DNA of 64,000 nucleotides from a virus (IMGVR_UViG_3300024999_000040:32001-96000), one strand, 5' to 3'; shown: positions 14,316 through 52,284, counted from the stretch's first letter. Program-made: numbers and translations. The notes: generated by a model from the letters alone, not told the origin.

Positions 14316-14368
14316 TAACCCCATAAAAGTGACATTTTATTGGATAAAAATTGAAATTTAAGAAGATG

Positions 14369-14432
14369 AACCTTGCAAATTTAAGTGAATTTTAATGATA
14401 TTTATTAATTTACTTAATATTTTGCAAGGTTT
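14369..14432. terminator. Long intergenic hairpin
   Basis: AACCTTGCAAA...TTTGCAAGGTT plus an inner TTAAGTGAATT/AATTTACTTAA stem. Confidence 0.55.
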
Positions 14433-14468
14433 TTATTATAGAAAATCATAAAAAGGAGGCATAAAAAT

Positions 14469-17400
14469 ATGATAATTGACTTTAAATCCCCTATCGTAAT
14501 TAGATTCAATACAGATTCAAATGGAAATGCTATTACTGAACCGATTATAAATGAATCAAAGCAAGTCATTAACCAAATGGTCGTTTTGGATCAAATTCCA
14601 AATAAACTGAACAGAATTTTGATTACTGGATATACTGAAATAGAACAACATGAAACTCTTACATTAGCTACGCAATTCCGCTGTAACTACCAAAATGGAA
14701 TCTTAACGTTCCATTCTTCAAAAGAAGGAAACACTATAAATATTGATAGTTATGCCGGAAGAGGGATAATTTATACTCCATCCACTCGTATTTATACAAA
14801 TTTGGATGGAATTGGTAATGTAAATCAAACATTATATGATCTCATAGCAATAACTTATAAAACACCTGTTTCTACCTTCACAGCACTCTCAACCATCTAT
14901 CCAACTCCAGAAAAAAATTGGACTGCACAATGCGAAGATACAGGAAAATTTTATAAATGGAGTGGTAGTGCATGGGAATATATTTCAATATTAAACAGTA
15001 GTCAAATTACGCAATTAAATAATGATATAGACAATTTAGCAGGTACAGGAAGAACAACAGAAACGGTAAAAGGAAATTCAGACAACATTAACGAAATCAA
15101 CAACAAACTTGATTCTGGCACAATCAACTCCCCTACCTTTATTTATGGTATGAATGGTGTGATAACTCATACAGGTGAAGTAATAGCATTCCCCGGAATA
15201 AGCTTCACTGGAATGACTATTGTCAATCTGCTAGGTAAAGATGGGGATTGTGAAGATGTAAGTAAGTGGTCGGGTTCTTCTGCTACATTATCTTTAGATT
15301 CAACAAATAAGATATTTGGAAGTAATGGTATTAAGATAACCTTAACATCGACAGCAGGTTCTGCATATAAAACATTGTCAACACTTAATGTAGATGTAAG
15401 TAAATATTATATGATGTCTGCATATTTAAAAAATGGGAATGCAACTAATGTGCGTCTATATAAAAGTGCAACAGGTGGAGGTGTATCGAAATCGGGGCCT
15501 TTTATTACAGATACTACTGCATTTACAAGAACCGTAATGAAATTACAACCATCTGATTTAAATGTTGCAAATACTATAACTTTATATGTAACTGGAGCAA
15601 GTACTCAATATGCTTATGCTGATGGAGTAATGTTTAACGAAATCTCCGCAGCAGACTATGCATTAACCGAATCTGAACTCCTAGCAAAATACCCATATGT
15701 CGAATCCTACGCAGCTTTACAAAATCCGTACTTTGAAAATCGCAGATATAACATGATTAGGAACGGTAACGGTGAGGAAGGTGTTGGGTATTGGATTCTA
15801 CATGATAGTAGTGTCACTCTATCTATAGAAAATGATAGATTTAAGATTGTGACTACTGCTGCGAGTCTAGTAAAACAGAAAATCAAAGTAAAACTAAATA
15901 CAGATTATTATTTTACTGCAAATGTAACTGGTTCAGGTGTTTCTGCTAGAGTATATCATTCCGATGCGACAACTGTTCTTAAAATAGGAGCAGGTTCTTT
16001 TAATAGTGGTGCTAACACAGAAATATGGGCAGCAATAAGAAACGCAGATGCAGAAACTTCATATTTTGATTCCATAATACTCACAGAAGGCACGACAGCC
16101 CCAACAACTTACCTATCCTGTGACTTACAGCGTTTTGTCATAGAAGGTCAATTCACAGATGACGATACTGTGACTGTGAAAGATGGTCAGGTATCAGGGT
16201 TGTTGAATTGGAAACATAGAACGTTGTATGGTAAGGATTATGATTGGATATATGCGGCAGATGGGACTGGATGGAAAAGAATGACTTGTTCATATGGTTT
16301 CCCTATCGGTTTATCTGCTAGTTATGGTGCAGGAAATACACATTTTGTAAAAAATAACGGAGATATTGTACGATTTAAACTTGAAGTTGATGAAAGTAAT
16401 ACATATGCTATGGGTAATGCTGATGCCACAAAAGTACATATTGCCGTAGCAGACACAGACACTGGCTTTGCAGAGTCTATAGCCCCTAATTCTGATGAAG
16501 TTAAAGCATTTATGAATGGGTGGAAGGCTACAGCCAATGATGGTACACGTTATACAGCATGGGTAAGTGTAGTAGATGGTGTAACTGTACCTACAGCACA
16601 AACTATTGACTTTGTTAAAGCTAATATAGCAAGCGGTTATGAAGGCTACAGGCTACATTACAAATTGGCAAATCCTGAACCGATAACCGATGTAAATGTA
16701 CATGTTCATGGCAGTATTTGGGGACTTGTGCCTGGAGATAATTATGTGACGGTGGATTCGGGGATGGTGTTGGAGGAAGTTGCGAATCCTATAAATGTAA
16801 CATCAAATTATTTTATAAATGATAATCGTTATGCAGATTTGCTGCAATATAAGGCAGAAACTATATTTCATATAAATAAAAATAGTTTGTTTGATTCGCT
16901 ATGGACATTAGATAGCAATTTAACATATACATATGGAAATTTACGAGCGTATACAGCCGTGGTAAATTTCAATGTAAATGCAGTATATACAGTAAAATAT
17001 CAAATACTAAAAACTCTTCATGTTCAGTCATTTGGTAACCTTGCAATGCAGTATGCACAGGATGTTTTTAGTAGTATTACGGCTATGGGAAAGGCACTGG
17101 AGGAAAAGCAGCAAAAGAATATCAGTCTTGATTCATTAGTGGATTTAAGTATATACGAGGAGTTTAAAAGTCTATACATTGTTGGTAGGTGGTTAAGGGC
17201 AGATTCAACTGCTCCATATATTTGCTACTTGCAATTAAAAATGTCTCCTAAAAAGGCGGTGCCGGTAATTAATCTAAAAGCAAACAGTGGTGTTGCTTTT
17301 AATGGTTCGGGCAGTTATACGACAATCCCATTGTCGAACATTTTAATTAGAACAACAATTATAGATACTAACAATTTACTTATTTATGCAACATATGTAG

Positions 17401-17489
17401 GAACTGATGCTACTATACAATCAAATTTATTGGCATATGGTGGGTGGGTAAATGTTAAAGTCATTGCAGACTGTCGCGGGAGGATTTAA
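14469..17489 (+). CDS. Tail fibre / receptor-binding protein with galactose-binding-like (CBM) domains
   Basis: 1006 aa, beta-rich. NLLGKDGDCE and NMIRNGNGE CBM-like starts. Followed by a chaperone-like gene. Confidence 0.7.
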   Translation: MIIDFKSPIVIRFNTDSNGNAITEPIINESKQVINQMVVLDQIPNKLNRILITGYTEIEQHETLTLATQFRCNYQNGILTFHSSKEGNTINIDSYAGRGIIYTPSTRIYTNLDGIGNVNQTLYDLIAITYKTPVSTFTALSTIYPTPEKNWTAQCEDTGKFYKWSGSAWEYISILNSSQITQLNNDIDNLAGTGRTTETVKGNSDNINEINNKLDSGTINSPTFIYGMNGVITHTGEVIAFPGISFTGMTIVNLLGKDGDCEDVSKWSGSSATLSLDSTNKIFGSNGIKITLTSTAGSAYKTLSTLNVDVSKYYMMSAYLKNGNATNVRLYKSATGGGVSKSGPFITDTTAFTRTVMKLQPSDLNVANTITLYVTGASTQYAYADGVMFNEISAADYALTESELLAKYPYVESYAALQNPYFENRRYNMIRNGNGEEGVGYWILHDSSVTLSIENDRFKIVTTAASLVKQKIKVKLNTDYYFTANVTGSGVSARVYHSDATTVLKIGAGSFNSGANTEIWAAIRNADAETSYFDSIILTEGTTAPTTYLSCDLQRFVIEGQFTDDDTVTVKDGQVSGLLNWKHRTLYGKDYDWIYAADGTGWKRMTCSYGFPIGLSASYGAGNTHFVKNNGDIVRFKLEVDESNTYAMGNADATKVHIAVADTDTGFAESIAPNSDEVKAFMNGWKATANDGTRYTAWVSVVDGVTVPTAQTIDFVKANIASGYEGYRLHYKLANPEPITDVNVHVHGSIWGLVPGDNYVTVDSGMVLEEVANPINVTSNYFINDNRYADLLQYKAETIFHINKNSLFDSLWTLDSNLTYTYGNLRAYTAVVNFNVNAVYTVKYQILKTLHVQSFGNLAMQYAQDVFSSITAMGKALEEKQQKNISLDSLVDLSIYEEFKSLYIVGRWLRADSTAPYICYLQLKMSPKKAVPVINLKANSGVAFNGSGSYTTIPLSNILIRTTIIDTNNLLIYATYVGTDATIQSNLLAYGGWVNVKVIADCRGRI

Positions 17490-17492
17490 ATT

Positions 17493-18104
17493 ATGAGAAA
17501 TCAATGTAGAATAGATGAAAATAATATTCTTTATTTCCAACCATATGAAGGAGAAGAAATTGTTCTTTGCAATATTAATGAGGTAAATATTCAAGACAAT
17601 ATGTTAATGGTAGATGGTGGATGTTATCCACTAGCAGAAAACTTTGGAAACGAAGTTGAGATACTAAATAAATGGAAAGAAATATATCCAAATGGTAAAC
17701 CAGAAACTATTAACATCGAATCCATTCGTCAATCAGTCATTTCAGCAATGGCTACTCAATGTGAATACAAAATAGTCAATGAGTTTTATTCTGATTGTTT
17801 AGGTGAATCTCTTCATTTTGGTTGTAAAAAAGATGAAGACCAGCAATGGATAATGGGTAAGTTTTTTAAAGCTCAATTAATCAAACAATCAAATCCTGAA
17901 CTCGCAGATGTGGCATTAGAAGCATTAGCATGGAAAAATCAAGTTGCTTTACAGTGTTTTGCATTTAGTCCTAATCAGATGATTGCTCTTGGAGAAGACA
18001 TGGAAACTCATTTAGCAGAAAAGAAAAATAGGTTTTATGAACTGAGGATTTGGGCTTTGGATGAGGTAAGAACGGTTGAGGAATTGGAGAATTGGGTATG
18101 GTAA
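17493..18104 (+). CDS. Putative tail fibre assembly/chaperone (DUF4376-like)
   Basis: Adjacent to the fibre gene. FYSDCLG..HF....DQ and C-terminal TVEELENWVW pattern. Confidence 0.55.
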   Translation: MRNQCRIDENNILYFQPYEGEEIVLCNINEVNIQDNMLMVDGGCYPLAENFGNEVEILNKWKEIYPNGKPETINIESIRQSVISAMATQCEYKIVNEFYSDCLGESLHFGCKKDEDQQWIMGKFFKAQLIKQSNPELADVALEALAWKNQVALQCFAFSPNQMIALGEDMETHLAEKKNRFYELRIWALDEVRTVEELENWVW

Positions 18105-18523
18105 GCGTATTGAGGGCTATATTTAAACATTTAGTCCTCTTTCTTATTTTAGGATTAATATATTATGGTATTGAGGTATGGTTTAGAGGTTATTCTTATT
18201 GGCAAATGGTAGTTGTAGCAATGATTATTACATTTCTCATTGATAGCTTAAATGAATATGTGCCTTGGTCTATGCCTCTTTATCAACAAGTTGGACTAGC
18301 AACTATTTTTTCAATTAGTATTGAGTTCTTCAGTGGATTATTATTTCGTAGTTTAGGTTGGATACTTTGGGATTATTCTAATATGGCATTTAATATATTG
18401 GGAGTAATTCAATTGTATTTTTGTTTAGCATGGATTCCACTTTCGGCGTTGGCAATTTTCTTATCAGATTTATTAAGGTACTTGTTGATGGATGAAGATT
18501 TTCCACACTATAAAATATTCTAA
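18098..18523 (+). CDS. Membrane protein (putative ABC-permease/CmpB-like family common after phage tail genes)
   Basis: Several TM helices, YYGIEVWFRGYS.W and WDYSN..FNILG.I.L motifs. Confidence 0.7.
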   Translation: MVSVLRAIFKHLVLFLILGLIYYGIEVWFRGYSYWQMVVVAMIITFLIDSLNEYVPWSMPLYQQVGLATIFSISIEFFSGLLFRSLGWILWDYSNMAFNILGVIQLYFCLAWIPLSALAIFLSDLLRYLLMDEDFPHYKIF

Positions 18524-18610
18524 CAACACATTAAAACATAGATTTTATTGGGAAATGGAAACTCAATAAATCAGTACTTTTATTGGGATGTTTTAAAGAC
18601 AAAGGGATGT

Positions 18611-18645
18611 AACTAATAGGGATGAAAACCACATCCCTATTAGTT
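18611..18645. terminator. 14-bp perfect stem hairpin
   Basis: AACTAATAGGGATG-loop-CATCCCTATTAGTT. Confidence 0.7.
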
Positions 18646-18730
18646 TTATCGTTGCTGAAGCAACGAATATAATTATAACTAAATATTGATTAATTTTAAC
18701 TAAAGTGATATAATAATATAAGAAAGAGAG

Positions 18731-18982
18731 ATGATGATTATGACAACTATTTATTCAACAAAGGATTTCTATTTAGCATCTTTATTGCTAAGTTCTGATT
18801 TTAAATTTGTTGATTCTGAAAAGAAACAAGAAGGAGTTTATTTTAATTTTATAAACTCAAACGATGAATTATTGAAAAAATTGCTTAATGATTTTATTAA
18901 TTATCAGGCAATGGTTAACATGAGAAAATTCACTTCTGCTCTCACTAGATTGAGAAAGGAACTAGATAAATATAAACACTAA
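18731..18982 (+). CDS. DUF5659-like small protein
   Basis: YSTKDFYLASLL...VYFNF motif. Confidence 0.6.
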   Translation: MMIMTTIYSTKDFYLASLLLSSDFKFVDSEKKQEGVYFNFINSNDELLKKLLNDFINYQAMVNMRKFTSALTRLRKELDKYKH

Positions 18983-19014
18983 TGGTTTTTTAGAGATGAT
19001 GGAGATGACGAAAT

Positions 19015-19617
19015 ATGAACGATAAAGCACATCGTATCTTATCAAGTGTAATGATTATTGATGCAGATACAAATAAAGAACAAGAAGTTAGAAATTTGGT
19101 AAGTGGTTTTCTAGTAGATAATATAATTTCAAATACAAAATTCGAAAATGTAAATACAAGTTTATTTGTAAAAGATACATCATTAAAACACTGGAAACCT
19201 AAGGCACATTTCACAAAAATATTTAATAACGAAATAGAATACGCAAAAGAACTTTATGGTTTGACAAGAACCGAAGTTCTTTTTTTATATTCACTTTCAC
19301 CTTATTTATTATGGGAAAATAATTTGTTGGTTGATGAAGAAGATGACCCACTTAATCAAAAAAGACTTGCTGAATTATTAGGAATAGAAAGAAAAACTGT
19401 TCAACGAAATATGAAAACCTTAGAAGAAAAGAAATGTATTTATAGCATCCCATATGAAAGGGATGTTTTTTATTTGGTTAATCCTAGTTTGATGTACGCA
19501 GGACAACAAATAAATATGATTATTCCTTCCCTATTTCGCGCATCAGGTTATGAACCTAGCGAAAGCATTAGAAGTAATAGAGATAAAGCAACTAAAAACA
19601 ATCAAATCAAGGCTTAG
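19015..19617 (+). CDS. RepL-like winged-helix DNA-binding protein
   Basis: LNQKRLAELLGIERKTVQRNMKTLEEK HTH and YLVNPSLMYAG. Confidence 0.65.
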   Translation: MNDKAHRILSSVMIIDADTNKEQEVRNLVSGFLVDNIISNTKFENVNTSLFVKDTSLKHWKPKAHFTKIFNNEIEYAKELYGLTRTEVLFLYSLSPYLLWENNLLVDEEDDPLNQKRLAELLGIERKTVQRNMKTLEEKKCIYSIPYERDVFYLVNPSLMYAGQQINMIIPSLFRASGYEPSESIRSNRDKATKNNQIKA

Positions 19618-19730
19618 AAGGCGATTTTATGTACCTTTAATGTCTCATGAGGTGACGAGAAATCAAGGGTTTTAAACGCCATATGGGACATTTCACATTA
19701 TTAGAGAAAATGAAAATGGAGGAATTTTAA

Positions 19731-20450
19731 ATGAATACAAATATTATGGGAATTTACAAGATTACTAATATTACAAATAATAAAATATACATAGGTAGTA
19801 GTGTTGATATTCATGGCAGATGGTTACAGCATCAAAATCAACTAAACAAGAATAAACATTGTAATAATTATTTGCAAAATTCTTGGAAAAAGCATGGAAA
19901 GGATAATTTTAAATTTGAAGTTGTTGAACTTGTTTCAGATGAGGATTTATTATTTTCAGCAGAACAGAAATGGATTAACAAAACAAAATGTTACGATAGT
20001 AATTATGGCTATAACATTTCAATAGAAGCAAGCAGACCTAATTGTGGGGATGGAACAAATCGATTAAATGCTAATTTTGTATTTAGGAATAAAATTACTG
20101 ATATTGTTGATATGAAATTAGATAAAAATGAAAAACTTGTTTATTATGTTCTTAGAGATTTTGCACAACATCCCTCAAACTGTATAATGCTAAATAATAT
20201 TGTACCTTCTTTTAAGGAATTAGAACCATTAGTGTCTTTAACTGAAAGAACAATTAGGGATGCTTTGAAAACACTTGAACAGAAGAATTTATTAAAGTTG
20301 GTACAGTCTGGTCACAAGAAGGCTATATACATAAATCCAGAATATTATTCTACAGGTAAAGAACTTAACATAGATACATTAGACCTTTTTAATTTGGAGT
20401 TATATACTTATGAAGATGTTGAAAATTATAAGAAGAAAAACACTAATTGA
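19731..20450 (+). CDS. GIY-YIG endonuclease fused to a RepL-like winged helix
   Basis: GIYKITN...IYIGSS...R..QH at the N-terminus. C-terminal LTERTIRDALKTLEQK...YINPEYY. Confidence 0.8.
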   Translation: MNTNIMGIYKITNITNNKIYIGSSVDIHGRWLQHQNQLNKNKHCNNYLQNSWKKHGKDNFKFEVVELVSDEDLLFSAEQKWINKTKCYDSNYGYNISIEASRPNCGDGTNRLNANFVFRNKITDIVDMKLDKNEKLVYYVLRDFAQHPSNCIMLNNIVPSFKELEPLVSLTERTIRDALKTLEQKNLLKLVQSGHKKAIYINPEYYSTGKELNIDTLDLFNLELYTYEDVENYKKKNTN

Positions 20451-20479
20451 ACAAATATAATAAAAGGAGGAAAAATCCA

Positions 20480-20668
20480 ATGGCTCCAGCAAAACCAAGT
20501 AAAACAAATCCAGATGTAAAGCAAAAAAGTCAGAAAAGCATCCTAGTTACTTCAGATAAGTGTATTGCGTGTTTAGAGCAATGTGAAAAAGGTTTAGCGT
20601 ATATTCAGACAGTCAAGAAAAAGTTTGGTAGTGGCTGTGTTTGTTATAAACTAAAGGAAAATAAGTAA
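20480..20668 (+). CDS. Small Cys-rich hypothetical protein
   Basis: AGGAGG RBS, CIACLEQC and GCVC. Confidence 0.55.
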   Translation: MAPAKPSKTNPDVKQKSQKSILVTSDKCIACLEQCEKGLAYIQTVKKKFGSGCVCYKLKENK

Positions 20669-20695
20669 ACAAATATAATAAAAGGAAGTGAAATC

Positions 20696-20992
20696 ATGTT
20701 TAAGAAAATAATTGAATCTTTCAAAAAAACAACAACCTCTAAAAAACTCACAGCATTGATAGTTGCGTTTTGGATTATGGTAATTATAGCAGATATAATT
20801 ATCTATTTAATTACAGGCAATACAATTAATGTAGTGGTCGATTATGTAAATACTGCATTCCTAGTTATTTTAGGTTCATATTTTGGTAAGAGTTTGATTG
20901 AAAATGTAGCAAAAGGTATAGAGAACAATATTACATCCAAGGCTACAGATATACCTACAGAATCAACAGAAAATCAAGAGTCTCAAGGTTGA
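20696..20992 (+). CDS. Putative holin
   Basis: Two TM helices, LGSYFGKS motif, located in the lysis module. Confidence 0.55.
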   Translation: MFKKIIESFKKTTTSKKLTALIVAFWIMVIIADIIIYLITGNTINVVVDYVNTAFLVILGSYFGKSLIENVAKGIENNITSKATDIPTESTENQESQG

Positions 20993-21006
20993 AGGAGATG
21001 ATTTAA

Positions 21007-21633
21007 TTGAAATATTACAAAGTATTTATTACACATGTTATAGAACTTGACCCATTAGAAATTCGTGCATCATTAGTTTCTGCTACAGGAAAATCAATTA
21101 TTAAGAAATTTAAAAATTTCATCAATTGTAATTTTTTCTCAGGTAGTAAAACAGTTGGTTGGTTAATATCTGAAGGCAAAGTTTTATCAGAAAGACATGA
21201 ATATAAAATATGGAAAGGGAATCCAAAAGGCAGTTTGATAGTCTACAAAGATGGTTCAGTTTTCGTAGGTTGGAAATATGATTCAGAAATTGTAGCTGAA
21301 CTTGATAAGATATGGTTCTGTTGTCAAGGGTTTAACTTATTCCCTACTGGTATGGATGTAATTTCTGGAATAAAGAAAGAGGGATTTGACCCTAATCAGG
21401 TAGGTTATACAACGAACAGAATTGCTATTGGCTATAATAAGGTTACTAATAAAATAGTAATTACTGTAAGACCTTCTAGTAATGCTCAAAGGGCTGTTTC
21501 TACTATGAAAAACTTAGGTTGTGATGGTAATGCCATATGCCTTGACAGTGGAGGAAGCGTCAATTTAGGATTATTAGGGAAGTTGATATTTTCAACGTCT
21601 AGGAGATTAACAAACATCTTATGGTGGAATTAA
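21007..21633 (+). CDS. Phosphodiester glycosidase (NAGPA-like) family protein
   Basis: INCNFF, RIAIGY and LGCDGNAICLDSGGS (LDGGGS-like) motifs. Confidence 0.75.
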   Translation: MKYYKVFITHVIELDPLEIRASLVSATGKSIIKKFKNFINCNFFSGSKTVGWLISEGKVLSERHEYKIWKGNPKGSLIVYKDGSVFVGWKYDSEIVAELDKIWFCCQGFNLFPTGMDVISGIKKEGFDPNQVGYTTNRIAIGYNKVTNKIVITVRPSSNAQRAVSTMKNLGCDGNAICLDSGGSVNLGLLGKLIFSTSRRLTNILWWN

Positions 21634-21647
21634 AGGAAGTGAAAAAT

Positions 21648-22580
21648 ATGGTAAAAATAAATGAACAACTAATTCCTGTAGGTCATCCAAATAGAGCAGG
21701 AACAAAAACAATTCCTATAGCTGTGATTGTACATTATACAGCTAATGATGCACCTTCCGCAACAGATACAGCAAACGCTAATTATTTTGCAAGAAAGTAT
21801 ATTGTCAAAAATGGAGTTATATATGAATCAAATGGTATTGATAAATTTAGATATGGTTCTACTCAATGGATTATAGATCAAGATAGTGCGACATTAGTAA
21901 TCCCTCAAAATGAAGTGTCATGGGGTTGCGGAGATAGGCAGTTACCTTATAACAATGGATATAAGGGGCAAACAAAAATAGCATATGATATATTTAATCA
22001 TAAACAGAATTATTTAACTATTAATTATGAAATTTGTAATAATGATACCATTAAAAATTCTAATGCTGATTGGCAAATGGCTTGTAACAATGCTATAGAG
22101 ATTATTGCACAAGATATGATTAAATATAATATTCCTATAGATAGAATTTATAAGCACCAAGATTTATCAGGTAAGATATGTCCAAAACCATTTATTGATA
22201 ATCCTAAATCATGGGAAGATTTCAAAAACAGAATCATAAATAAAATAAATAATAAGCAAGAAGGAAGTGAATCAGAAGTGATAATGGATAAAGTTTATAC
22301 TTGTAAAAGAATAGTAACTACTACATTAAATGTTAGAACTTCACCTAGTACAGATGGAAAAATTCTTGGACAATTTAAGGCCGATGAAGTCATTGTATGT
22401 ACAGGTGAAGTTGGTAATGGTTGGATAAGAGTTGTCTATCAAGATCAGGATGGATTTTGCTCAGAAAAGTATACAAATCCATTTATAGAACTAGATTATA
22501 AATCTAAGTGTGAACAATTAAGTAAAGATAATAATGCACTCACAAGTAAATTGAATGCCATTAAAAATATTTTAGATTAG
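21648..22580 (+). CDS. Endolysin: N-acetylmuramoyl-L-alanine amidase (Amidase_2) plus SH3b domain
   Basis: VIVHYTAN, INYEIC and HQDLSGKICP motifs. SH3 domain LNVRTSPST...GWIRV. Confidence 0.9.
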   Translation: MVKINEQLIPVGHPNRAGTKTIPIAVIVHYTANDAPSATDTANANYFARKYIVKNGVIYESNGIDKFRYGSTQWIIDQDSATLVIPQNEVSWGCGDRQLPYNNGYKGQTKIAYDIFNHKQNYLTINYEICNNDTIKNSNADWQMACNNAIEIIAQDMIKYNIPIDRIYKHQDLSGKICPKPFIDNPKSWEDFKNRIINKINNKQEGSESEVIMDKVYTCKRIVTTTLNVRTSPSTDGKILGQFKADEVIVCTGEVGNGWIRVVYQDQDGFCSEKYTNPFIELDYKSKCEQLSKDNNALTSKLNAIKNILD

Positions 22581-22591
22581 GATGTGATTGT

Positions 22592-22807
22592 ATGTTCAAT
22601 ATAACACATCCAAAGTACTCAAATATCACTTGGAGAAGCGAAGAAAACCAGAAAAGGATAAATACAATTATGTTAATTATGAACTACATCAATCGTGATG
22701 TAAACGATTTAGAATTCATGAAGGATAAAAGTGATTCTGAAAAGGCTGTACTTCAAGAATATATAACAATTCTCAGAAATTTACTTATCGAAGAAATGTC
22801 AGTATAA
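22592..22807 (+). CDS. Hypothetical protein
   Basis: ORF with RBS in the lysis operon. Confidence 0.5.
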   Translation: MFNITHPKYSNITWRSEENQKRINTIMLIMNYINRDVNDLEFMKDKSDSEKAVLQEYITILRNLLIEEMSV

Positions 22808-23317: not shown

Positions 23318-23325
23318 ACAAATAT

Positions 23326-43892: not shown

Positions 43893-44112
43893 ATTATGTA
43901 TTCTCCTTTCTATATTATATTTTCTTTATTTAACTTTTTGTTTTTTCTTTTAAAATTTGTTTGCATTCTTGAATACTTTCATCAATAGAGCAATTATTTT
44001 TACCAGATAAAACAATTAATTCTGCTATGAACATAACATCTTTATCGGGTATTTTTTCTGTATCAATTTTAATAATCATTTATATATTACCTTTCTCAAT
44101 AAAATGTATTTT

Positions 44113-44505
44113 CTATTGGGTTTGTTCCTGATTCAATCTTTCACATTCTTTTTCGGCTTCTTCTCTGTTTATAAATAACTTATCTTCCGAAATATCATTC
44201 ATTAAATCAAAAGTATCATACTCTCCTGAAAAATATGAAAGATTATAATAAAATCCATCTCTTAAATTTTCAATATATAATCCAGTAACTACATAAGGAC
44301 AAAATTTATCAACAGAAAATTCTATATATTCTTCTCTTGTTTTACCTATGCCATTACATCTAGAACAATCTAAATTGAAAGTTTCTATTAATACTTTTCC
44401 TGTACCATTACAAGTATTACAGTCTATAATAGCACCTTTTTTCTTATTGCACTGAATTCTATATACTTCATTACCGAAGTTAAACTTAGGTTTTGGTAGT
44501 TGCAT
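44113..44505 (-). CDS. DnaJ-type zinc finger (CxxCxGxG) protein
   Basis: CNTCNGTG and CSRCNGIG. Confidence 0.65.
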   Translation of the reverse strand: MQLPKPKFNFGNEVYRIQCNKKKGAIIDCNTCNGTGKVLIETFNLDCSRCNGIGKTREEYIEFSVDKFCPYVVTGLYIENLRDGFYYNLSYFSGEYDTFDLMNDISEDKLFINREEAEKECERLNQEQTQ

Positions 44506-44716
44506 ATTTTAATTCCTCTTTTCTCGAAATACTTTGAATGCATTCTTTTATTGTTCTACTTTTCTTCACATACTTCAACATTAATTTCACAAACAAAATC
44601 ATAAGTATCATATTTTGAAATAACGTCTAATAATTCTTGTAACTGTTCGTAGCCTTTACATTCATAACTTTCGCCTTCTCTTTTAATTGTAAATTTTAAC
44701 ATAACCTACTCCTTTC

Positions 44717-45106
44717 TTACCACTTTCTAGTATCCGTAAAATCAATTTCACATTTACACTGAGAACATACACCTGTAACATAACCACCTATACCGGTATT
44801 ACCTTCAAATAGTTCTAATGGAATTTTACAAGTATTACAATTAGCATATATCTTACCTTCATATGTATCTGTATATCCATCTGCCTTACCTTTATATTCC
44901 ATTTCTTTGTGTTGATCTAAAAACCAATTAGCAGACATTGAATTTGATTGAACTGCTTTAAGTTTTCTTAGTTCTTCATTTAAGCTATTTTCTTCTTGTT
45001 GTAAAATTTCTCTCCTAAATTGTGTGTTTTGAACTTCTTTCCATAGATTATCATCTTCTGTTTCTATGGATACTAACCGATTTTGGATTTCTATAATTCT
45101 ATCCAT
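44717..45106 (-). CDS. Coiled-coil plus zinc-ribbon hypothetical protein
   Basis: CNTC and CSQC. Confidence 0.55.
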   Translation of the reverse strand: MDRIIEIQNRLVSIETEDDNLWKEVQNTQFRREILQQEENSLNEELRKLKAVQSNSMSANWFLDQHKEMEYKGKADGYTDTYEGKIYANCNTCKIPLELFEGNTGIGGYVTGVCSQCKCEIDFTDTRKW

Positions 45107-45114
45107 ATTTTCTC

Positions 45115-45531
45115 CTAATCAACCGTTGTAACTTCAACAGGCAAAATCATTTTTGGATTAAAGTTAATTTGATACTTATATTTGTTTATGGTAGTAGTAC
45201 CTAAATCCTCAACTATATAGCTAATGTCTTTTGATAAAAATACAAAATGTTTGTAGAAAGTACCATTTTCATTTTCACCTATAACAGCTAAATCACCATC
45301 AGTTTCTTTCTCGATTGAAAAATTACCTGTCATTTGAAATAGAATTGCTGTATTACCGTCCTCTGCTCTTGTGTTTATTACTGTCAATTTTCTTGCAACG
45401 TTGAAATTGTCTGCTTGCAATGAAAGATTGTAACTGACAGTATTTGCTTGACGTTGTTCACAACCCGAGAATACCAATATTGACATAATTGCTACGAGTG
45501 TGATAATAACATTCCTTTTTGATTTAAACAT
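45115..45531 (-). CDS. Conserved phage lipoprotein
   Basis: Lipobox FSGC, SYNLS.QADNF.V.RKLTVIN. Confidence 0.7.
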   Translation of the reverse strand: MFKSKRNVIITLVAIMSILVFSGCEQRQANTVSYNLSLQADNFNVARKLTVINTRAEDGNTAILFQMTGNFSIEKETDGDLAVIGENENGTFYKHFVFLSKDISYIVEDLGTTTINKYKYQINFNPKMILPVEVTTVD

Positions 45532-45604
45532 GATTTTTCTCCTTTATTATTTTAATTTTATTTGGTACAATTTTATTTTCCTTTAAATTCAACATTTCAT
45601 TATC

Positions 45605-46003
45605 TTATGTCTTATTTATTTCAATTATAATATTTTCAATAATATCCTCTGTATTTTCTATCATGAAAAACGTCGGATGGTTGTTTGTTTCATCCATCCA
45701 TCTTTCCAATGCTTCATTAAGCATATCTTCAAGTTTCTGTTTTTCTTCTTTAGTATAATCTAGATATCCTTCTGAACATTCACCACATTGATCATAAGCA
45801 TTTTCTGAAATATAATCTAATACATTATCAACATCAATACTTGGAATAAAACAAGTTATTTGACCTACCTGATACGATTCCTCTTCTCTTTCTATTGCTT
45901 CTGCTCTACCTGTTTCAATAGCCTCTTCCCTTGTTTCAAAAAATTCACATTCATCCCAATGTTCTTCATCACCAAAATTGTACATCCATTGTCCTGTTTT
46001 CAT
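45605..46003 (-). CDS. Acidic hypothetical protein
   Basis: FETREEAIE motif. Confidence 0.6.
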   Translation of the reverse strand: MKTGQWMYNFGDEEHWDECEFFETREEAIETGRAEAIEREEESYQVGQITCFIPSIDVDNVLDYISENAYDQCGECSEGYLDYTKEEKQKLEDMLNEALERWMDETNNHPTFFMIENTEDIIENIIIEINKT

Positions 46004-46022
46004 AATTTTATATTTCCTTTCT

Positions 46023-46232
46023 TTAACTTACTTTTACAATATGAAATGTTGTTTTACATTTTGGACAAATAAATTTCAAACCATTATCTCTACTATATTC
46101 AAAACTCATTGTATCAATATCCATTGATTGAACGATATTTCCATTATCATCTTCAAACATATAATCCATATATGCTCTTTGACCACAATCACAAGTAATG
46201 TTTATCATATTTATATTCCTTTCTTTCGTCAT
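46023..46232 (-). CDS. Small zinc-ribbon protein
   Basis: CDCG and CPKC. Confidence 0.5.
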   Translation of the reverse strand: MTKERNINMINITCDCGQRAYMDYMFEDDNGNIVQSMDIDTMSFEYSRDNGLKFICPKCKTTFHIVKVS

Positions 46233-46237
46233 AAATA

Positions 46238-46537
46238 TTATATACTTTTTATAATCAACTCTAATCTACCACCAAGCAATTCCAACAATTTCTTAGTAAA
46301 AGCCTTATCATCATCTGAATCCATACATTCCATACTTGCGGTTAATATTAATTCTTCTTCTGGATTTTTAAAGTCTTCTCCGTCATTACCACTTCTCTTT
46401 ACAATATCAAGCGTTCCAAATCCAATTGTAGAACTCCAATAGATACGCATACCACCTTTATTGTACTTATGTTTGCTCCAGAAATCTATATTATCTATTT
46501 GTAGGTTGATATTATTTACATCGTTTTTTCTTGGCAT
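46238..46537 (-). CDS. Hypothetical protein
   Basis: W....GFG.L and MD..DDK.F.KKLL. Confidence 0.6.
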   Translation of the reverse strand: MPRKNDVNNINLQIDNIDFWSKHKYNKGGMRIYWSSTIGFGTLDIVKRSGNDGEDFKNPEEELILTASMECMDSDDDKAFTKKLLELLGGRLELIIKSI

Positions 46538-46585
46538 AGTTTTATCCTTTCTTTTACCTTATGAAATAGGATATATATTGGGTAT

Positions 46586-46632
46586 ACCATATATAGCATC
46601 AAAAATAAATTTTATATACTATATATGGTATG
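46586..46632. terminator. Hairpin downstream of the vWA gene
   Basis: ATACCATATATAG...CTATATATGGTAT. Confidence 0.55.
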
Positions 46633-46642
46633 GTTTTTTATA

Positions 46643-47266
46643 TTACTTTATCTCGTCATTCCAGTTATCTTGTATTTCTCCATCAGTTCTATAACTAGCA
46701 ACAGATTTACTAACGCTAGAATACAACGTTCCAATACCACGACTGTTTGCTGTATAATTCGAAGCAAACTGTCCAGATATTCCAAAATTCTGAGCCGTTG
46801 ATACAGCATCAATATTTGCACCAAGAAATAAGAACTTCCAACTATAGTTGTTTGTTTGATGCTTAATCATTTCCTTAACTTTACTTTGGGTAAATTCTTT
46901 ACTGGAATTTTCTTGACCATCTGTAGTAATTACAAAAATAACTTTAGAAGGTTTGTCTTCCTCTTTTGTCTTACTTAGTCTGTCACCTACAGTATTAATT
47001 GTTTTGCCTATAGCGTCTAATAATGCTGTCATTCCTCTTGCTGAATATTCTTTAGTTGTAAGTAGTTTTACTGCTTTAATGTCTACCCCATTATGAAGTA
47101 TTTCATATTGATCATCAAACAGTATTGTAGTGAGTATAGCTTCTCCGTCTTCCTGTTTCTGAATTTCAATAAATGAATTAAATCCACCTATTGTATCAGT
47201 TACTAAGTTACTCATAGAGCCACTTCTGTCGAGGATGAATACGATTTCAGTTAAATTGTCTTTCAT
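46643..47266 (-). CDS. von Willebrand factor A domain protein
   Basis: ILDRSGSM MIDAS, TALLDAIG, TTDGQENSS and FLFLGAN. Confidence 0.9.
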   Translation of the reverse strand: MKDNLTEIVFILDRSGSMSNLVTDTIGGFNSFIEIQKQEDGEAILTTILFDDQYEILHNGVDIKAVKLLTTKEYSARGMTALLDAIGKTINTVGDRLSKTKEEDKPSKVIFVITTDGQENSSKEFTQSKVKEMIKHQTNNYSWKFLFLGANIDAVSTAQNFGISGQFASNYTANSRGIGTLYSSVSKSVASYRTDGEIQDNWNDEIK

Positions 47267-47325
47267 GTTTTCTTAATCTCCTTTTATATTAATTTAATTT
47301 TACTTTAAAATTTCCGTTTCGTTGA

Positions 47326-47766
47326 CTATTTAAGTTTAAAGTTAAAACTTCCACTTATTATATGTATACAATCGCATTTTCTTTTGTATTTAAATAATAC
47401 ATAAACATCACAATCGTTTGTTGGAATGGCAAACTTTTTCCCTATTGGTCTTATAGTATGTAGTGTTCCATCAGATGTTTGCACCTCAATATCTCCAATA
47501 ATTTCTTTATCGTGTGGTAATTCTCCAATACCTTTATTTAATGGAATTGTCATTTGATGAAAAAGTTCAACCTTTTTATTTTCTTCTATAAGCATCCAAT
47601 TATTAATACATAGTATACAATTAGTCATATTTAAAAATACCGGTTCTTTATCATTATCCCATACAATACTTCCATTAATGCATTTGACTTTTAAAGTCGA
47701 ATCTTCAATAACTGCTTTTAAGTTTGGATTTTTTCTTAATTCAATTATCATTTCTAAAGTATTCAT
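47326..47766 (-). CDS. Hypothetical protein
   Basis: ORF with AGGAG RBS. Confidence 0.6.
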   Translation of the reverse strand: MNTLEMIIELRKNPNLKAVIEDSTLKVKCINGSIVWDNDKEPVFLNMTNCILCINNWMLIEENKKVELFHQMTIPLNKGIGELPHDKEIIGDIEVQTSDGTLHTIRPIGKKFAIPTNDCDVYVLFKYKRKCDCIHIISGSFNFKLK

Positions 47767-47808
47767 ACTATTATTATACTCCTTTAGTTAAAAATATTCA
47801 ATACCTAT

Positions 47809-48216
47809 TTATACAAACATAGCCAACACCAACAGCACCATCTCATGTAATCTATGATCTATTCCTATATGCATAAATCCAAATGTCTGATAATCGTTTA
47901 TCTGTTCCCAACTCATACCTTTGAATCTCATAATCCATTTAACAGGGATTCTAGTGTCTATAAGTAAATGTGATATAAACAACACATCCCATATGAATGA
48001 AAATTGCTGATAGTTAAAATCAAATATAAACAGTAGGGCAGTTGAAGTTAATGCCGAATAAATAAAACTATGGCTCACTACTGCTATAGTAGCCTTTAAA
48101 CAATTATCCATAGTCCATTTACTTTTATTAACTGCTTGCCAGTTCCATTGAAATATCCAATCAACGAATAGGCTTATGAAATATGCTACTACTAGGAATT
48201 CTATATTTATATTCAT
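47809..48216 (-). CDS. DUF3307-like membrane protein
   Basis: DWIFQ..WQA.NKS, H..IY, SH..ID and DHRLH. Confidence 0.75.
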   Translation of the reverse strand: MNINIEFLVVAYFISLFVDWIFQWNWQAVNKSKWTMDNCLKATIAVVSHSFIYSALTSTALLFIFDFNYQQFSFIWDVLFISHLLIDTRIPVKWIMRFKGMSWEQINDYQTFGFMHIGIDHRLHEMVLLVLAMFV

Positions 48217-48525
48217 TTAGTTTAACCTCACTTACTTTTATAATTATCTTTCTTTCCACCATCATAAATCCTTTTGCAACCAACACAATTAGATACTGCC
48301 TTTGATCTTAAATCAACATCTTCATATTTACAACCTTTACAAGTTAATTTTCCCATTTAGTTTAATCTCCAAATTTTTTCCCATAATTTAATACAATGAT
48401 ATTGAAAATTATACCATATCCATTTCCATTTAGGTGTAGGTTTACCTATATTATCAAGAATCTCATTAACTGGTTTTAATATTATTTTGTCAGTCATTTT
48501 TTATTTTCCCCTCAGGCAATAAAAT

Positions 48526-48771
48526 TCAAATTTCATTCGCTTGTAATATTTCAATTATTTTATCTGAATCATATTGTTTTCTTAAAGTATTTTTCGCAAT
48601 ATCAGACATAATCCCCATAGTACTTACCGCTATAATTAAATCTCTATCATTATTTTTATATTTGTCACATATTGCTATCATCTGAGTTTTAATAGACTCA
48701 AATATTTCATCTACATGATCATCTTGTGCTTCATATTTTTTATTTGGTTTATCATCAAATGTTACTATCAT
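48526..48771 (-). CDS. Hypothetical protein
   Basis: ORF with RBS. Confidence 0.55.
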   Translation of the reverse strand: MIVTFDDKPNKKYEAQDDHVDEIFESIKTQMIAICDKYKNNDRDLIIAVSTMGIMSDIAKNTLRKQYDSDKIIEILQANEI

Positions 48772-48975
48772 ATATTTTCCTTTCTTAGACCTTTAATCTT
48801 TTCTCCACAACTACTACAAAATTTATCCATAGGGCTTAAGCCACCACATTTACATTTATTACAATAATATAATGTTGAAAGTTTTCCATCTGATGGAGGG
48901 AAAATAATAATTTCTTTATATAATATCTCTGCCATACTTATTGTTCCTTTCTAGGCAATAAAATTGCCAGTTCAA

Positions 48976-49173
48976 TCATTTATTTCTATACATCTTTTGT
49001 AAAAGACCATCCTCAAACTCATATTCAAATAATTTGCAATCTTCACAGAAATAATAGGCTTCATCACCTTCGCTAAATCCAGCACAATTATATCCACCAA
49101 ATGAACCTTTCCTATATTCTATATTGTTGTGATTGCAATTTTTCTGTTTAATTAATTTATCTATACTATACAT
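48976..49173 (-). CDS. Small zinc-binding hypothetical protein
   Basis: AGGAG RBS before MYSIDK, CNH and CEDC. Confidence 0.55.
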   Translation of the reverse strand: MYSIDKLIKQKNCNHNNIEYRKGSFGGYNCAGFSEGDEAYYFCEDCKLFEYEFEDGLLQKMYRNK

Positions 49174-49288
49174 ATGGATTCTCCTTTCAAATGGCCACCT
49201 CAAGACTTTTATTACAAACATATTACAATACTTCATTTGAGGTACTTTTATTACAGAAATATTACAAAGCGTTATTATATGTACTTTA

Positions 49289-49612
49289 TTACCTTTCACT
49301 CAAGTCTTTAAACATTTCTTTACAATAACAATTATCACACAAACAATAATCTTTCATTTCAACATGTCTATATTTCTTAGGCTGCGGATAAAATATACCA
49401 GTATGTCTATATTTTAAACCGCACTCTATACAATTTTTGTATTCTATTTTTCTAGCACTATATGTAGGATCAAATTCAACCTGCACTTCAAATTCTTCTT
49501 CACATTACTGACAAGTCCAATCTAAAGTATTATCTGAAGATAATCCATCACATAGAGCATCGGTCATATCATTCTCATATTCACAATAAGGACATTCTAC
49601 TGTATTGTACAT
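49289..49612 (-). pseudogene. Double zinc-ribbon gene interrupted by an in-frame TAA
   Basis: MYNTVECPYCEYEN...WTCQ*CEEEFEVQVEF...CIECG...LCDNC. TAA at 49505-07 splits a CxxC. Confidence 0.7.
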
Positions 49613-49630
49613 TGTTTTTATATCTCTCCT

Positions 49631-49924
49631 TTACATTGTTTGATTATACAAACTTTCCATTGCTTTTAGAACACTTTCGTATCCATAGAAATTATCTTCT
49701 ATTGGAAACAATACTCTACTAAATACTGAACTAAGATGTTTACATGTAAGAAGTATATACTGATCACTTTTATTATCCCTGATATTTCTATCGAATAAAA
49801 GGCTTATAAAAAATATAGGCTTACATTCATCGGTTAACCAGTGTTTTTCAGTTAATTCATTTACTTCATTTCTTAAAGAATCTATAATACTATTTCCCCA
49901 TGTTCTATCTTCATATGTGATCAT
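49631..49924 (-). CDS. Hypothetical protein
   Basis: ORF in a co-oriented cluster. Confidence 0.55.
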   Translation of the reverse strand: MITYEDRTWGNSIIDSLRNEVNELTEKHWLTDECKPIFFISLLFDRNIRDNKSDQYILLTCKHLSSVFSRVLFPIEDNFYGYESVLKAMESLYNQTM

Positions 49925-49926
49925 AA

Positions 49927-50226
49927 TTATTCATCCCATCCATCCAAATTACCATTCCAATTTTGATACTCTTCAAAATATGAAAACTTATTTACTGAAA
50001 TTTGCTTATTATATTCATCAATAGCTGATTTTGCCTTTAATATTATACTTTCTTTATTATAATACATATCTGTCCATGAATAATTATATGGAGCAATATT
50101 TTTACCGTTTACCTGAAAAATATTAATATTATGATGAGTCTTACCGTTTATACCTCTTTCAGTTGCAAAATTATAATCTATTGCATATGTATTGTTTTTG
50201 TAGGTTATAGTTTTCTTTAAGTCCAT
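49927..50226 (-). CDS. Hypothetical protein
   Basis: ORF with GGTGGAG RBS. Confidence 0.55.
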   Translation of the reverse strand: MDLKKTITYKNNTYAIDYNFATERGINGKTHHNINIFQVNGKNIAPYNYSWTDMYYNKESIILKAKSAIDEYNKQISVNKFSYFEEYQNWNGNLDGWDE

Positions 50227-50627
50227 TTATATCTCCACCTTTCTTTATCCAATAAAACTGCAATTTCATCGACTTTGTTTTATTTTTAATTCAAGTTCTC
50301 TTTTTGAGTGCCATAACATATGACTATATGCAAAATACGTTCCTGGTTTATTTAAAATTGCAGTAAATAAAAATGTTAAGCCATCAATAATTTGCAATAG
50401 TCCATTGATAAAATAATAAATCCTTCTCTTCATAATTTATCTCCAAAAGTCTATCAAATTAAGATTTTAAGTTATAAACGTCAATATTATAACCTTCAGA
50501 TAATGTTCTTTCAATGTTATCCATTTGTAATCTGACACGATTATATGATTTAAATGATTCATGTTTGTTAAGTAATTTATTTGCTGTTTTATTTAATTGT
50601 TTCCATGATTCAATTAATTCTTTTGAC

Positions 50628-51056
50628 TTATCCATTCTTTAGTTCCTCTCTCACTCTCATCAATATCTTACCTAACTTATTCTGACCTCTACCACTACAT
50701 ACACCCCAATAAGTATCATTCCAGCTATTACCTTCAATTAATTCGGCATCACCTGTATTAATGAGCATTTGCTTTAAATACTTAATATTGAATTTAGCCT
50801 TAACAACGTTATACATAACGTCATCTTTTATTTGTTCCCAATCTTGTCTTAGTTGTACTTTTCTACCTAACTTCTTAGCATCTGAAGCACTAAGATTACA
50901 AAATTGTTTTCTATTGTTTTTATCTATTATTTTTACAGATTGAAATGCGGCTTCAGCATTATTGTAAAACAATCCATCATATTCAATTTGATATGATATA
51001 TCTTCATAAAAATTACTTAAAAAATAATATTGTCCTCTGAATTCATTTATTAGCAT
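50628..51056 (-). CDS. NADAR (YbiA-like) family protein
   Basis: FLSNFY, AEAAFQ, AKKLGR, DWEQIK..VM, LIEGNSWNDTYWG and GQNKLGKILM.VR. Confidence 0.92.
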   Translation of the reverse strand: MLINEFRGQYYFLSNFYEDISYQIEYDGLFYNNAEAAFQSVKIIDKNNRKQFCNLSASDAKKLGRKVQLRQDWEQIKDDVMYNVVKAKFNIKYLKQMLINTGDAELIEGNSWNDTYWGVCSGRGQNKLGKILMRVREELKNG

Positions 51057-51093
51057 TTTTATATCTCCTTAATTTCACAATGAAATAAATCTT

Positions 51094-51495
51094 TTATTTA
51101 CTCTTTTCAATATTTTCATTTTTATTTCTATCATCACATTCGTTTTGAGCTTCTTCTAATGTTTTAAAACAATCCTTTTCATAAAAATAATTTCCAGAAT
51201 TACCCCAAGGGAAATAAGCAATTTTAGTTTCCTTTTTAGTAACTTCAATATCTATTCTATGAATTTTGTTAAAACTAGTATATTTATTCTCCGCAATTCT
51301 CCAGCATTGAGGTTCTATTATTGTCCTAGTTCCAGAACCATAACATTCAGGGCAAATAAACTTCTTTTCTGATATATTAATTTCACATTCACCTTTGCAA
51401 ACATCACAAGTAACTGTTTTCTCTTCGGTATTTTGCCATATTATAAATATATATTCTCCTATTGACAACTTTGTATTAATATCCATAATTAACAA
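51094..51495 (-). CDS. DnaJ-type zinc finger protein (paralog of 44113..44505)
   Basis: CDVCKG, CPECYGSG and F.TLEEAQ.ECD.RN. Confidence 0.65.
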   Translation of the reverse strand: MLIMDINTKLSIGEYIFIIWQNTEEKTVTCDVCKGECEINISEKKFICPECYGSGTRTIIEPQCWRIAENKYTSFNKIHRIDIEVTKKETKIAYFPWGNSGNYFYEKDCFKTLEEAQNECDDRNKNENIEKSK

Positions 51496-51519
51496 TCTCC
51501 TTCCAAATCGGACATTCGT

Positions 51520-51726
51520 TTAGTTTATTCCATCAATCCTTTTACGCCAACAATTCAAACACAAATCTTCTTCTTTAACAATCGGTTCAGATGTTGTAAT
51601 CATGTCTCTAAAATTAAGTATGATTTTTCCGCATCCATCACAGATTTCTTCCCATGACCACCACTGACTTACATCTGGAATATTAGAATCTGGATTATAT
51701 TTTACTTTCTGAATATTGTTTTTCAT
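51520..51726 (-). CDS. Small zinc-finger protein
   Basis: CDGCGK and DLCLNC. Confidence 0.55.
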   Translation of the reverse strand: MKNNIQKVKYNPDSNIPDVSQWWSWEEICDGCGKIILNFRDMITTSEPIVKEEDLCLNCWRKRIDGIN

Positions 51727-51761
51727 ATTAACCTCTCAACAAAACAAACTTTATTATGTTT

Positions 51762-52238
51762 TTATTTTATTTCAAAATCTCTTTTAATAAACTCTTTATA
51801 TTCATCATAAGTAAAAGCCTTGCTACCATCCCAAGCATGTATCAAATCAGTTCTCATTTGATACATAGTACCTTGACCTTGAGCAGTTCTTATGAGAATG
51901 TTTAATCCTTTGAAAACCAAGCAACAATTTTCTTCTTCAAAATAAGAACTTTCTATATTACTAATCATTGCTTTATTTGCATAGTCAATCATATTTGAAC
52001 ACAACTTACAAAAGTTTAATTCTGAAAACTCATATTTTTCTGTATTATATAATATATCTTCATTATCAATATAATCTTCTTTATTGAGTAAATGTTGATA
52101 TACTAAATCCATAATATTATCTTGTTTTTCCATTATAAATTTCTCATTCTGTAATTCTTGTTCAATCATATCTTGAATACAACCATCAATAAATTCTTGT
52201 TTCTCTTCTTCGGTTTTAAATAAATCTGTAAAGTTCAT
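51762..52238 (-). CDS. Hypothetical protein
   Basis: AGGAAGGA RBS before MNFTDLF, GQG motif. Confidence 0.6.
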   Translation of the reverse strand: MNFTDLFKTEEEKQEFIDGCIQDMIEQELQNEKFIMEKQDNIMDLVYQHLLNKEDYIDNEDILYNTEKYEFSELNFCKLCSNMIDYANKAMISNIESSYFEEENCCLVFKGLNILIRTAQGQGTMYQMRTDLIHAWDGSKAFTYDEYKEFIKRDFEIK

Positions 52239-52284
52239 AATTATTTCCTTCCTTAAAGGCAACGAAAACTGTCTTTTATTGGGT

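Follow-up and report, generated by a model that had tools for sequence, protein, structure and literature searches.

Phage genomes are mosaic and their accessory genes turn over very fast, and the clean exchange of such genes at their borders is a long-standing question. The closest described systems are of several kinds. In cassette exchange with lox or FRT sites only identical spacers recombine, so that the segment between two different sites is swapped in a fixed place and orientation, and variants of lox, FRT and dif with different spacers likewise recombine only where the spacers match. The attC sites of integrons are 57-141 nt long, are defined by structure and recombine as folded single strands with IntI; the PeSLs of T4-type phages contain both a promoter and a genuine stem-loop, and homologous recombination is the route by which they work. 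In the phages SPbeta and phi3T, a repeated element no longer than 26 bp is bound by a repressor of the MrpR/SroF type, which has a tyrosine-recombinase fold (PMC10516654; bioRxiv 10.1101/2025.11.27.690993). Here we analyse a palindromic element, with inverted arms around a variable 6-bp centre, that recurs between the genes of a large phage. The window, by which we mean the whole stretch of 64,000 nucleotides that was analysed (IMGVR_UViG_3300024999_000040:32001-96000), is formed by bases 32001-96000 of a linear viral contig of 148,716 bp; the whole phage is labelled G000, and it was compared with four relatives, G001-G004, which are Clostridia-type phages of the DNA polymerase III (Pol III) clade. 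We propose, with a probability that we put at roughly 45%, that the sites may be position-specific crossover joints, most likely of the recombinase type.

An earlier note, made from the sequence of the window, had drawn attention to a recurring palindrome with a variable 6-bp centre, and a matrix built for it places the motif far above the shuffled background. At a threshold of at least 12 bits, the iterated symmetric matrix finds 54 sites in the whole contig, 17 of them in the window, against 2.3 in shuffled sequence (maximum 6). Its half-site reads [G/C]NCAATRAAA, which gives two inverted arms of about 10 bp, a 6-bp centre and a total length of 26 bp; the core of the palindrome is ATRAAA-N6-TTTYAT. 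The 18-bp core, with at most one mismatch, has 18 matches in the window where 6.2 are expected, a number reached in none of 100 shuffles, and the 26-bp form, with at most three mismatches, occurs nine times where 0.03 are expected. Among the spacings of 4-8 tested in the five genomes, only a spacing of 6 is enriched; no position outside the 26 bp is conserved, and the left/right asymmetry of the sites is slight. Fourteen of the 17 coordinates listed earlier score 13-28 bits, 45583 is borderline (11.7 bits), and two, 48958 (6.1 bits) and 50453 (6.4 bits), are weak; the sites at 398, 22811 and 46557 had been missed. The sites run through the entire contig, well beyond the interval 14319-52283. 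Those of the window, in window coordinates and with no strand assigned, are as follows.

398-423, palindromic site, 17.5 bits; at the edge of, or within, a tape-measure-like open reading frame (ORF)
14319-14344, palindromic site, 26.5 bits; between ORFs 13929-14315 and 14469-17489
18527-18552, palindromic site, 24.1 bits; first member of a tandem pair with a spacing of 35 bp, 3 nt past the stop of ORF 18092-18523
18562-18587, palindromic site, 24.4 bits; second member of the tandem pair
22811-22836, palindromic site, 21.6 bits; 3 nt past the stop of ORF 22592-22807
25470-25495, palindromic site, 27.6 bits; holds the stop codon of ORF 25488-25898 (minus strand)
25936-25961, palindromic site, 27.3 bits; directly past the stop of the cas3-like gene 25964-28015 (minus strand)
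36091-36116, palindromic site, 25.8 bits; a ribosome-binding site (RBS) comes next on the minus strand
36401-36426, palindromic site, 16.5 bits; 17 nt ahead of the start of ORF 36117-36383 (minus strand)
39521-39546, palindromic site, 24.6 bits; a 12/12 sigma-A-type promoter (39601-39573, minus strand) lies about 27 nt upstream, and the start at 39518 follows after 2 nt
44095-44120, palindromic site, 24.2 bits; holds the stop of ORF 44113-44505 (minus strand)
45579-45604, borderline site (45583 of the earlier note), 11.7 bits
46557-46582, palindromic site, 15.7 bits; a paired ATATATRGTATA element precedes it on the transcribed strand
47301-47326, palindromic site, 13.3 bits; centre CGGAAA (gene orientation), with a rare AACGAAA arm
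48515-48540, palindromic site, 21.6 bits
50248-50273, palindromic site, 24.0 bits
51076-51101, palindromic site, 18.9 bits
52258-52283, palindromic site, 26.8 bits; the operon read from promoter 52534-52505 (minus strand) has its first site here

The placement of the sites relative to genes is as had been described: 52 of the 54 lie outside genes, and nearly all stand between the stop codon of one gene and the RBS of the next. The upstream stop codon mostly falls between -15 and +6 nt from the left edge, often as a TAA or TGA within the arm, and the overlap with stop codons is confirmed by the sites at 25470 and 44095, which contain ORF stops; the copy just past the cas3 stop is the site at 25936. 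In the minus-strand block the right edge is usually followed after 12-37 nt by the next start codon (ATG), the RBS lying between the two; about half of the intergenic gaps of 30-60 nt carry a site, so that not every junction has one, and gaps of less than 30 nt are essentially without sites. In the plus-strand (structural) block the site comes after the stop codon, with the next start 100-600 nt away, and is often followed by a terminator-like hairpin; the order stop codon, site and G+C-rich terminator-like hairpin, within approximately 10-25 nt, is seen at contig positions 4863-4905, 18940-18985 and 28280-28320, all ahead of the window. Most sites are operon-internal and away from promoters. 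The replication block at 53-64 kb, which the note had described as free of copies, indeed contains no site in the matrix scan, the next one lying at 64009, just beyond the window.

The evidence that carries our proposal comes from the centres. Within a genome no 6-bp centre is shared between sites (three genomes, with 54, 41 and 50 sites), and the centres have a G+C content of 41% in a genome of 28% G+C. Between the mosaic relatives G001, G002 and G004, in which Pol III is 72-99% identical, the centres recur: G002 and G004 have 26 identical-centre pairs, against a null mean of 4.4 (maximum 12), and all 23 of the pairs in the dominant orientation are collinear; there are 20 such pairs between G001 and G002 (null 4.2) and 19 between G001 and G004 (null 5.1). 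Neither flank is homologous, as judged on 120 bp of DNA and by BLASTP of the adjoining proteins, in eight of the pairs of G002 and G004, in 11 of those of G001 and G002 and in 11 of those of G001 and G004. When two such addresses were aligned in all three genomes, the identity extended over only about 19 nt and the surroundings could not be aligned. In addition, 13 of the 118 alignment ends between G002 and G004 lie within 30 bp of a site, where random positions give 2.3 and, in 2000 trials, never more than 8; at these ends the identity continues across one arm and the centre as far as the other arm's core hexamer, after which it ceases. A crossover point with a matching centre is favoured because conserved, collinear centres with replaced flanks would not be expected of a hairpin, of bent DNA or of an operator of the simple kind.

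In the phage of the window itself, the centre and the rare arm variant of the 47301 site recur, between differing flanks, in G001 and G002 and in some ten further viral contigs, three of which (L185, L187 and L191) have one flank in common and part directly past the core. The closest relative of G000 is the locus L089 (Pol III 84%), and at the junction by 64009 its homology with the window starts inside the site, at the boundary between centre and right arm. Two further addresses of the window, scanned in viral contigs, gave 39 and 62 matches; for the second pattern, 15 of the 19 aligned matches are near-identical copies of one prophage-type locus, which has the same site architecture as the window and the same centre as the site at 52258, although, three addresses having been tried, this is not beyond chance.

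A number of observations weigh against the proposal. The G000 centres match those of G001-G004, and those of some 480 sites of other loci, only at chance level, and the first three sites downstream of Pol III differ in centre between L089 and G000. Three of the four indels between these two phages have no site at their ends; one of them is a free-standing mobile gene of the HNH-AP2 homing-endonuclease type (window 62714-63403, minus strand), which is absent from the otherwise collinear L089. When gene junctions, rather than random positions, are taken as the background, the enrichment of breakpoints between G002 and G004 is only about two-fold (nine of 61 junction ends, compared with 7.9% of all junctions). 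No excised or variant cassette forms were found in the contigs of four groundwater metagenome runs over 35-54 kb, a comparison of contigs only and of low power: of the four runs only the source assembly spans 35-54 kb, the phage being present in the others at 3-5x, as short identical fragments, and the joints listed have short sides or low likeness, the apparent joint from 43697 to 51749 resting on 21 letters. The small recombinases considered below are only some 25% identical between groups, though the arm core is conserved, which is odd for a cognate enzyme. Finally, general homologous recombination on a conserved, identical island of about 20 bp would yield the same pattern, and so fits the data too.

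For the sites as crossover joints, the mechanism that we envisage is the following. A site-specific DNA-binding protein, two-fold or paired, would recognize the arms (core ATRAAA/TTTYAT, about 10 bp here), and the 6-bp centre, different at each junction, would serve as an address. When a cell brings together the genomes of related phages, whether through co-infection or because a lysogen is infected, crossover would be restricted to sites with an identical centre, and the one to three genes between neighbouring addresses would be replaced as a unit, their order and orientation being kept. The prime candidate for the enzyme would be a small Xer-like tyrosine recombinase encoded next to PemK/MazF. 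We infer that crossover occurs within the site, that a tyrosine recombinase performs it and that the same holds for the phage of the window. A second role of the sites in docking a regulatory protein would be compatible with this reading. The wider generalization, that SPbeta-like phages from Bacillus to Clostridia hosts possess a natural recombinase-mediated cassette exchange, in which dozens of heterospecific sites with common arms and position-specific 6-bp centres and a small Xer-like recombinase swap genes slot by slot, leaving order, orientation and neighbours intact, seems to us doubtful.

Set against these results, the interpretation offered in the earlier note survives in part. The geometry of a tyrosine-recombinase site, which it had recognized, is borne out, in that the sites are built 10-6-10 with A-tracts abutting the 6-bp centre, as in difH and difSL (PMC5357621). 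Cassette exchange at the sites gains support from the relatives, which keep centres collinear while the flanking genes are replaced, but not from the G000 centres, which stand at chance level; similarly, the suggested comparison of breakpoints in relatives finds mosaic breaks at sites, measured between G002 and G004, where homology ends at the core edge, but also the three L089 indels without a site. The likeness to an integron is not supported, there being neither an attC-type folded structure nor covariation of the arms, and a tolerance of heterologous cores of the Tn916 type is not suggested by the data, each junction keeping its own core.

The nature of the element was judged from its arms. 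Watson-Crick pairs between them number 339, against 354 expected from shuffled right-arm partners, and G.U (33) and A.C (39) are about equally frequent, with A.C at the R/Y position not depleted. Because the arms do not covary, the element is, on this comparison, a site in double-stranded DNA whose two inverted half-sites are conserved independently of each other; an RNA hairpin or a single-stranded DNA fold was rejected, there being neither covariation nor compensatory change. It is thus very improbable that the sites act at the level of RNA, as short mRNA hairpins 5' of the Shine-Dalgarno sequence that serve processing, stability or translation and carry the address in the loop. The constant placement immediately 5' of the RBS would suit such a role, as would the MazF/PemK endoribonuclease encoded in all five phages, but A.C mismatches occur freely midway along a 6-bp A/U stem, the right arm in G003 prefers G where the left arm has A, and the plus-strand sites follow stop codons at 100-600 nt from the next start. 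Nor is the element a promoter, since there are no flanking conserved elements, the right core in G002 directly abuts the Shine-Dalgarno sequence and TTGACA/TATAAT promoters are located elsewhere. A terminator was likewise rejected, only two terminator-like sites being found in 19 kb and none of them at the motif.

The same palindrome is found in all four of the relatives G001-G004. The top 6-N6-6 palindrome has the half-site ATAAAA in G000 and G003 and ATGAAA in G001, G002 and G004, and the sites number 35, 41, 50 and 34 in G001, G002, G003 and G004, respectively, against 4-9 in shuffles; over the five genomes the range is 34-54 sites against 3-9. Their placement between stop codon and RBS is the same in G001-G004. 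In the 45-95 kb (yop-yoq) region of SPbeta the core has 20 matches, where 5.7 are expected, besides the SPBRE of that phage, and ATAAAA-N6-TTTTAA/T sites occur at the ends of yoq genes, for example at 41073, 41885, 42598, 43399 and 47393 of the locus L136 (SPbeta 45001-95000). We found no mention of the palindrome in the SPbeta literature that was searched. With the G000 matrix, the NrdD-based relatives (80 loci) and most of the Pol III-based relatives have few or no sites, and L091, in which Pol III is 77% identical, has none in 22 kb. As far as sequence can tell, the sites are a family-wide element of SPbeta-like phages.

This spread is wide in relation to the gene content of the phages, which share about 5% of their proteins; the families common to all five are only Pol III, NrdD, dUTPase, PemK and tyrosine recombinases, and G000 has only some 12 proteins in common with G002 and G003, too few for a comparison of the conservation of junctions. 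The retention of the core over very divergent phages, whose sole common denominator is a Firmicutes host, would be expected of a docking site for a conserved DNA-binding or DNA-bending protein of Clostridia and Bacilli, or of an intrinsically bent A4-N6-T4 element, the centres being kept for the shape of the DNA. The A-tract and the T-tract, phased by 10 bp, agree with this, but shape leaves unexplained the letter-for-letter, position-specific conservation of unrelated centres, and we consider this alternative improbable. We know of no Firmicutes regulator site that the palindrome matches, although no search aimed at one was made.

The proposed crossover at the sites calls for an enzyme, and the contig encodes three tyrosine recombinases of the catalytic type, including an integrase and the small Xer-like one. 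These two, with a promoter that heads an operon of the window, are as follows.

23390-24595, minus strand, phage integrase, a tyrosine recombinase of 401 aa; located where the two strand blocks meet
137880-138800 of the contig, minus strand, small Xer-like tyrosine recombinase; outside the window, intact
52505-52534, minus strand, sigma-A-type promoter (11/12, TG-extended); heads a run of small genes of about 12.7 kb with some nine sites

The small enzyme keeps the catalytic residues R, K, HxxR, H and Y, and best matches XerC, XerA and XerD (1e-25 to 4e-27), with a match to IntI4 over 47 residues only. It is encoded by G000 and all four relatives, adjoining a PemK/MazF gene; the pair, which has no recognisable antitoxin, lies at contig 134312-138800 (minus strand) and at 84351-86211 in G002, 16172-25516 in G003 and 26015-28202 in G004. 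A gene of the Cro/C1 helix-turn-helix type adjoins the pair in G002, and in G000 and G003 the pair is joined to YopQ-like and MrpR-like genes. In G000 these form, outside the window, an SPbeta-type lysogeny operon of the Xer-like recombinase, a 95-aa protein, PemK/MazF, a YopQ/SroE-like protein and an MrpR/SroF-like protein. The idea that the type of motif follows the phylogeny of the small recombinase was not supported, since the G001 enzyme groups with those of G000 and G003 and its motif is of the ATGAAA type.

The same operon brings in another explanation, an operator having been the alternative named in the earlier note, namely that the sites form an array of operators or stoperators, at which a phage regulator (a YopP/SroD-like, YopQ/SroE-like or MrpR/SroF-like recombinase-fold protein, or some other dimeric protein) binds and either halts transcription through the operons of early and accessory genes during lysogeny or sets the timing of early expression, with no recombination. 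Such a design is known from the mycobacteriophages, whose stoperators are 20-30 intergenic repressor sites per genome (PMC6550527); MrpR of SPbeta binds a repeated element (PMC10516654), which we found 17-88 nt upstream of gene starts, and the SroF box of phi3T is also 26 bp long and rich in A-tracts (bioRxiv 10.1101/2025.11.27.690993). Besides the sro-like operon of G000, with its Xer-like recombinase, PemK, YopQ-like and MrpR-like genes, the location of the sites in early and accessory regions agrees with an operator, as do the tandem sites at 18527 and 18562 and the two sites that lie about 27 nt downstream of strong promoters. On the other hand, the sites are mostly operon-internal and away from promoters, and they are palindromic, whereas SPBRE, the SroF box and the stoperators are asymmetric. 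G001, G002 and G004 carry the motif but have no homologue of MrpR or YopQ; the core is kept among phages with little else in common, whereas immunity operators normally diverge with their repressor; and an operator leaves unexplained why the centres are unique in each genome yet collinear between genomes with replaced flanks. We regard this explanation as unlikely, if not strongly so. As a general answer, an MrpR/SroF operator in particular was rejected: the motif is present in three genomes without MrpR, SPbeta has both elements, and SPBRE, which was derived from six bound SPbeta promoters and is asymmetric, is unrelated to the palindrome in sequence. Relatives of MrpR are too rare in the collections for a comparison of co-variation.

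Other promoter-linked elements were seen in the same genome. Some ten strong sigma-A-type promoters share the spacer TTGACA-N4-TTAACTAA-N2-TGATATAAT, with -10 ends at window positions 18714 (plus strand), 32737, 34399 and 39573 (all minus strand) and at contig positions 22736, 106727, 112466, 119086, 128150 and 138996; this conserved spacer suggests a second, promoter-embedded operator for some regulator. Paired copies of ATATATRGTATA, which are halves of an 18-bp palindrome and stand 20-26 nt apart, immediately precede four palindromic sites (window 46583-46626; contig 98932-98975 and 124905-124954; and L089:215-235, ahead of the replication module of L089), and may be a special early promoter or operator.

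The gene content of G000 marks it as a large temperate phage of the SPbeta-like type: its replication genes include the Pol III alpha subunit, DnaB, a UvrD-type helicase and SSB, and it further encodes NrdD, a dUTPase, an NAD-dependent ligase, a YOMG-type tail protein, the integrase and a Cas3-like helicase. Because relatives of its polymerase are contained in genome assemblies of Clostridium and Lachnospiraceae, the host is probably a member of the Clostridia. A 191.7-kb scaffold from a groundwater metagenome assembly is identical in sequence over the 21 kb compared. The accessory genes of the window are nearly all orphans. An IS66-family transposase gene at 9901-11571 (plus strand), in an island of 43% G+C within the structural region, is probably a host-derived insertion sequence; three RRXRR-HNH paralogues are scattered over the genome (window 12661-13899, plus strand; contig 24621-25961, plus strand, and 131916-133148, minus strand), and an intein with a LAGLIDADG endonuclease domain lies inside a 642-aa ORF (contig 128165-130093, minus strand).

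If the sites are crossover joints, they would provide a dedicated mechanism for the turnover of phage accessory genes (defence, counter-defence, host takeover) at clean gene borders, and a natural set of orthogonal recombination sites. Even if they are only regulatory, the position-specific conservation of the centres needs a new explanation. The presence of the motif in SPbeta opens the element to study in a tractable model phage, and the idea can be put to a direct test in two Bacillus subtilis phages that have this motif and are amenable to genetics, SPbeta and phi3T.

Among the known systems, the SPBRE and SroF box come from the same phage family and resemble the present sites in being AT-rich boxes with A-tracts, at most 26 bp long, that stand right before the RBS and have a reader of recombinase fold, but SPBRE, present in about ten copies, is an asymmetric element of promoters to which a monomer binds (PMC10516654), and its sequence is unrelated. 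The stoperators of Cluster A mycobacteriophages are likewise short sites, 20-30 or more in number, in short intergenic gaps and mostly not at promoters; they are, however, 13 bp long, asymmetric, oriented with transcription and co-variant with the immunity repressor (PMC6550527), whereas the phage sites described here are palindromic, with a free centre and a core that is kept across differing sets of repressors. PeSLs and attC sites share with them the character of repeated elements that border small accessory genes and are tied to modular gene exchange, but the present site is 26 bp long, with arms conserved in sequence and with neither a promoter nor a conserved structure. The sites also resemble Xer/dif sites and the pdif modules of Acinetobacter plasmids, in which a central region of 6 bp is enclosed by inverted arms of about 10-11 bp; in difH and difSL the A-tracts abut the centre, and the layout and inner arms match the Xer sites of single recombinases (PMC5357621), and as with pdif the sites bracket small gene modules and an Xer-like recombinase is encoded nearby. 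By eye, the phage arms do not match those of XerC/XerD, XerH or XerS sites (PMC5357621), only the A-tract adjoining the centre being common, and the same was true, again by eye, of the Bacillus subtilis dif site; the study of host dif sites by Kono et al. (PMC3025954) holds no Clostridia sequence to compare. The present system also differs from Xer/dif and pdif in having about 50 sites per genome, in a phage rather than a plasmid; its arms are symmetric, without the C/D-D/C alternation of pdif, and, unlike dif, the centre differs from site to site and is retained at its position from one genome to another. In this last respect it resembles heterospecific lox/FRT cassette exchange, with identical arms and different spacers, although that system, a laboratory practice, is man-made and uses two or three variants, whereas here a natural array of dozens is proposed.

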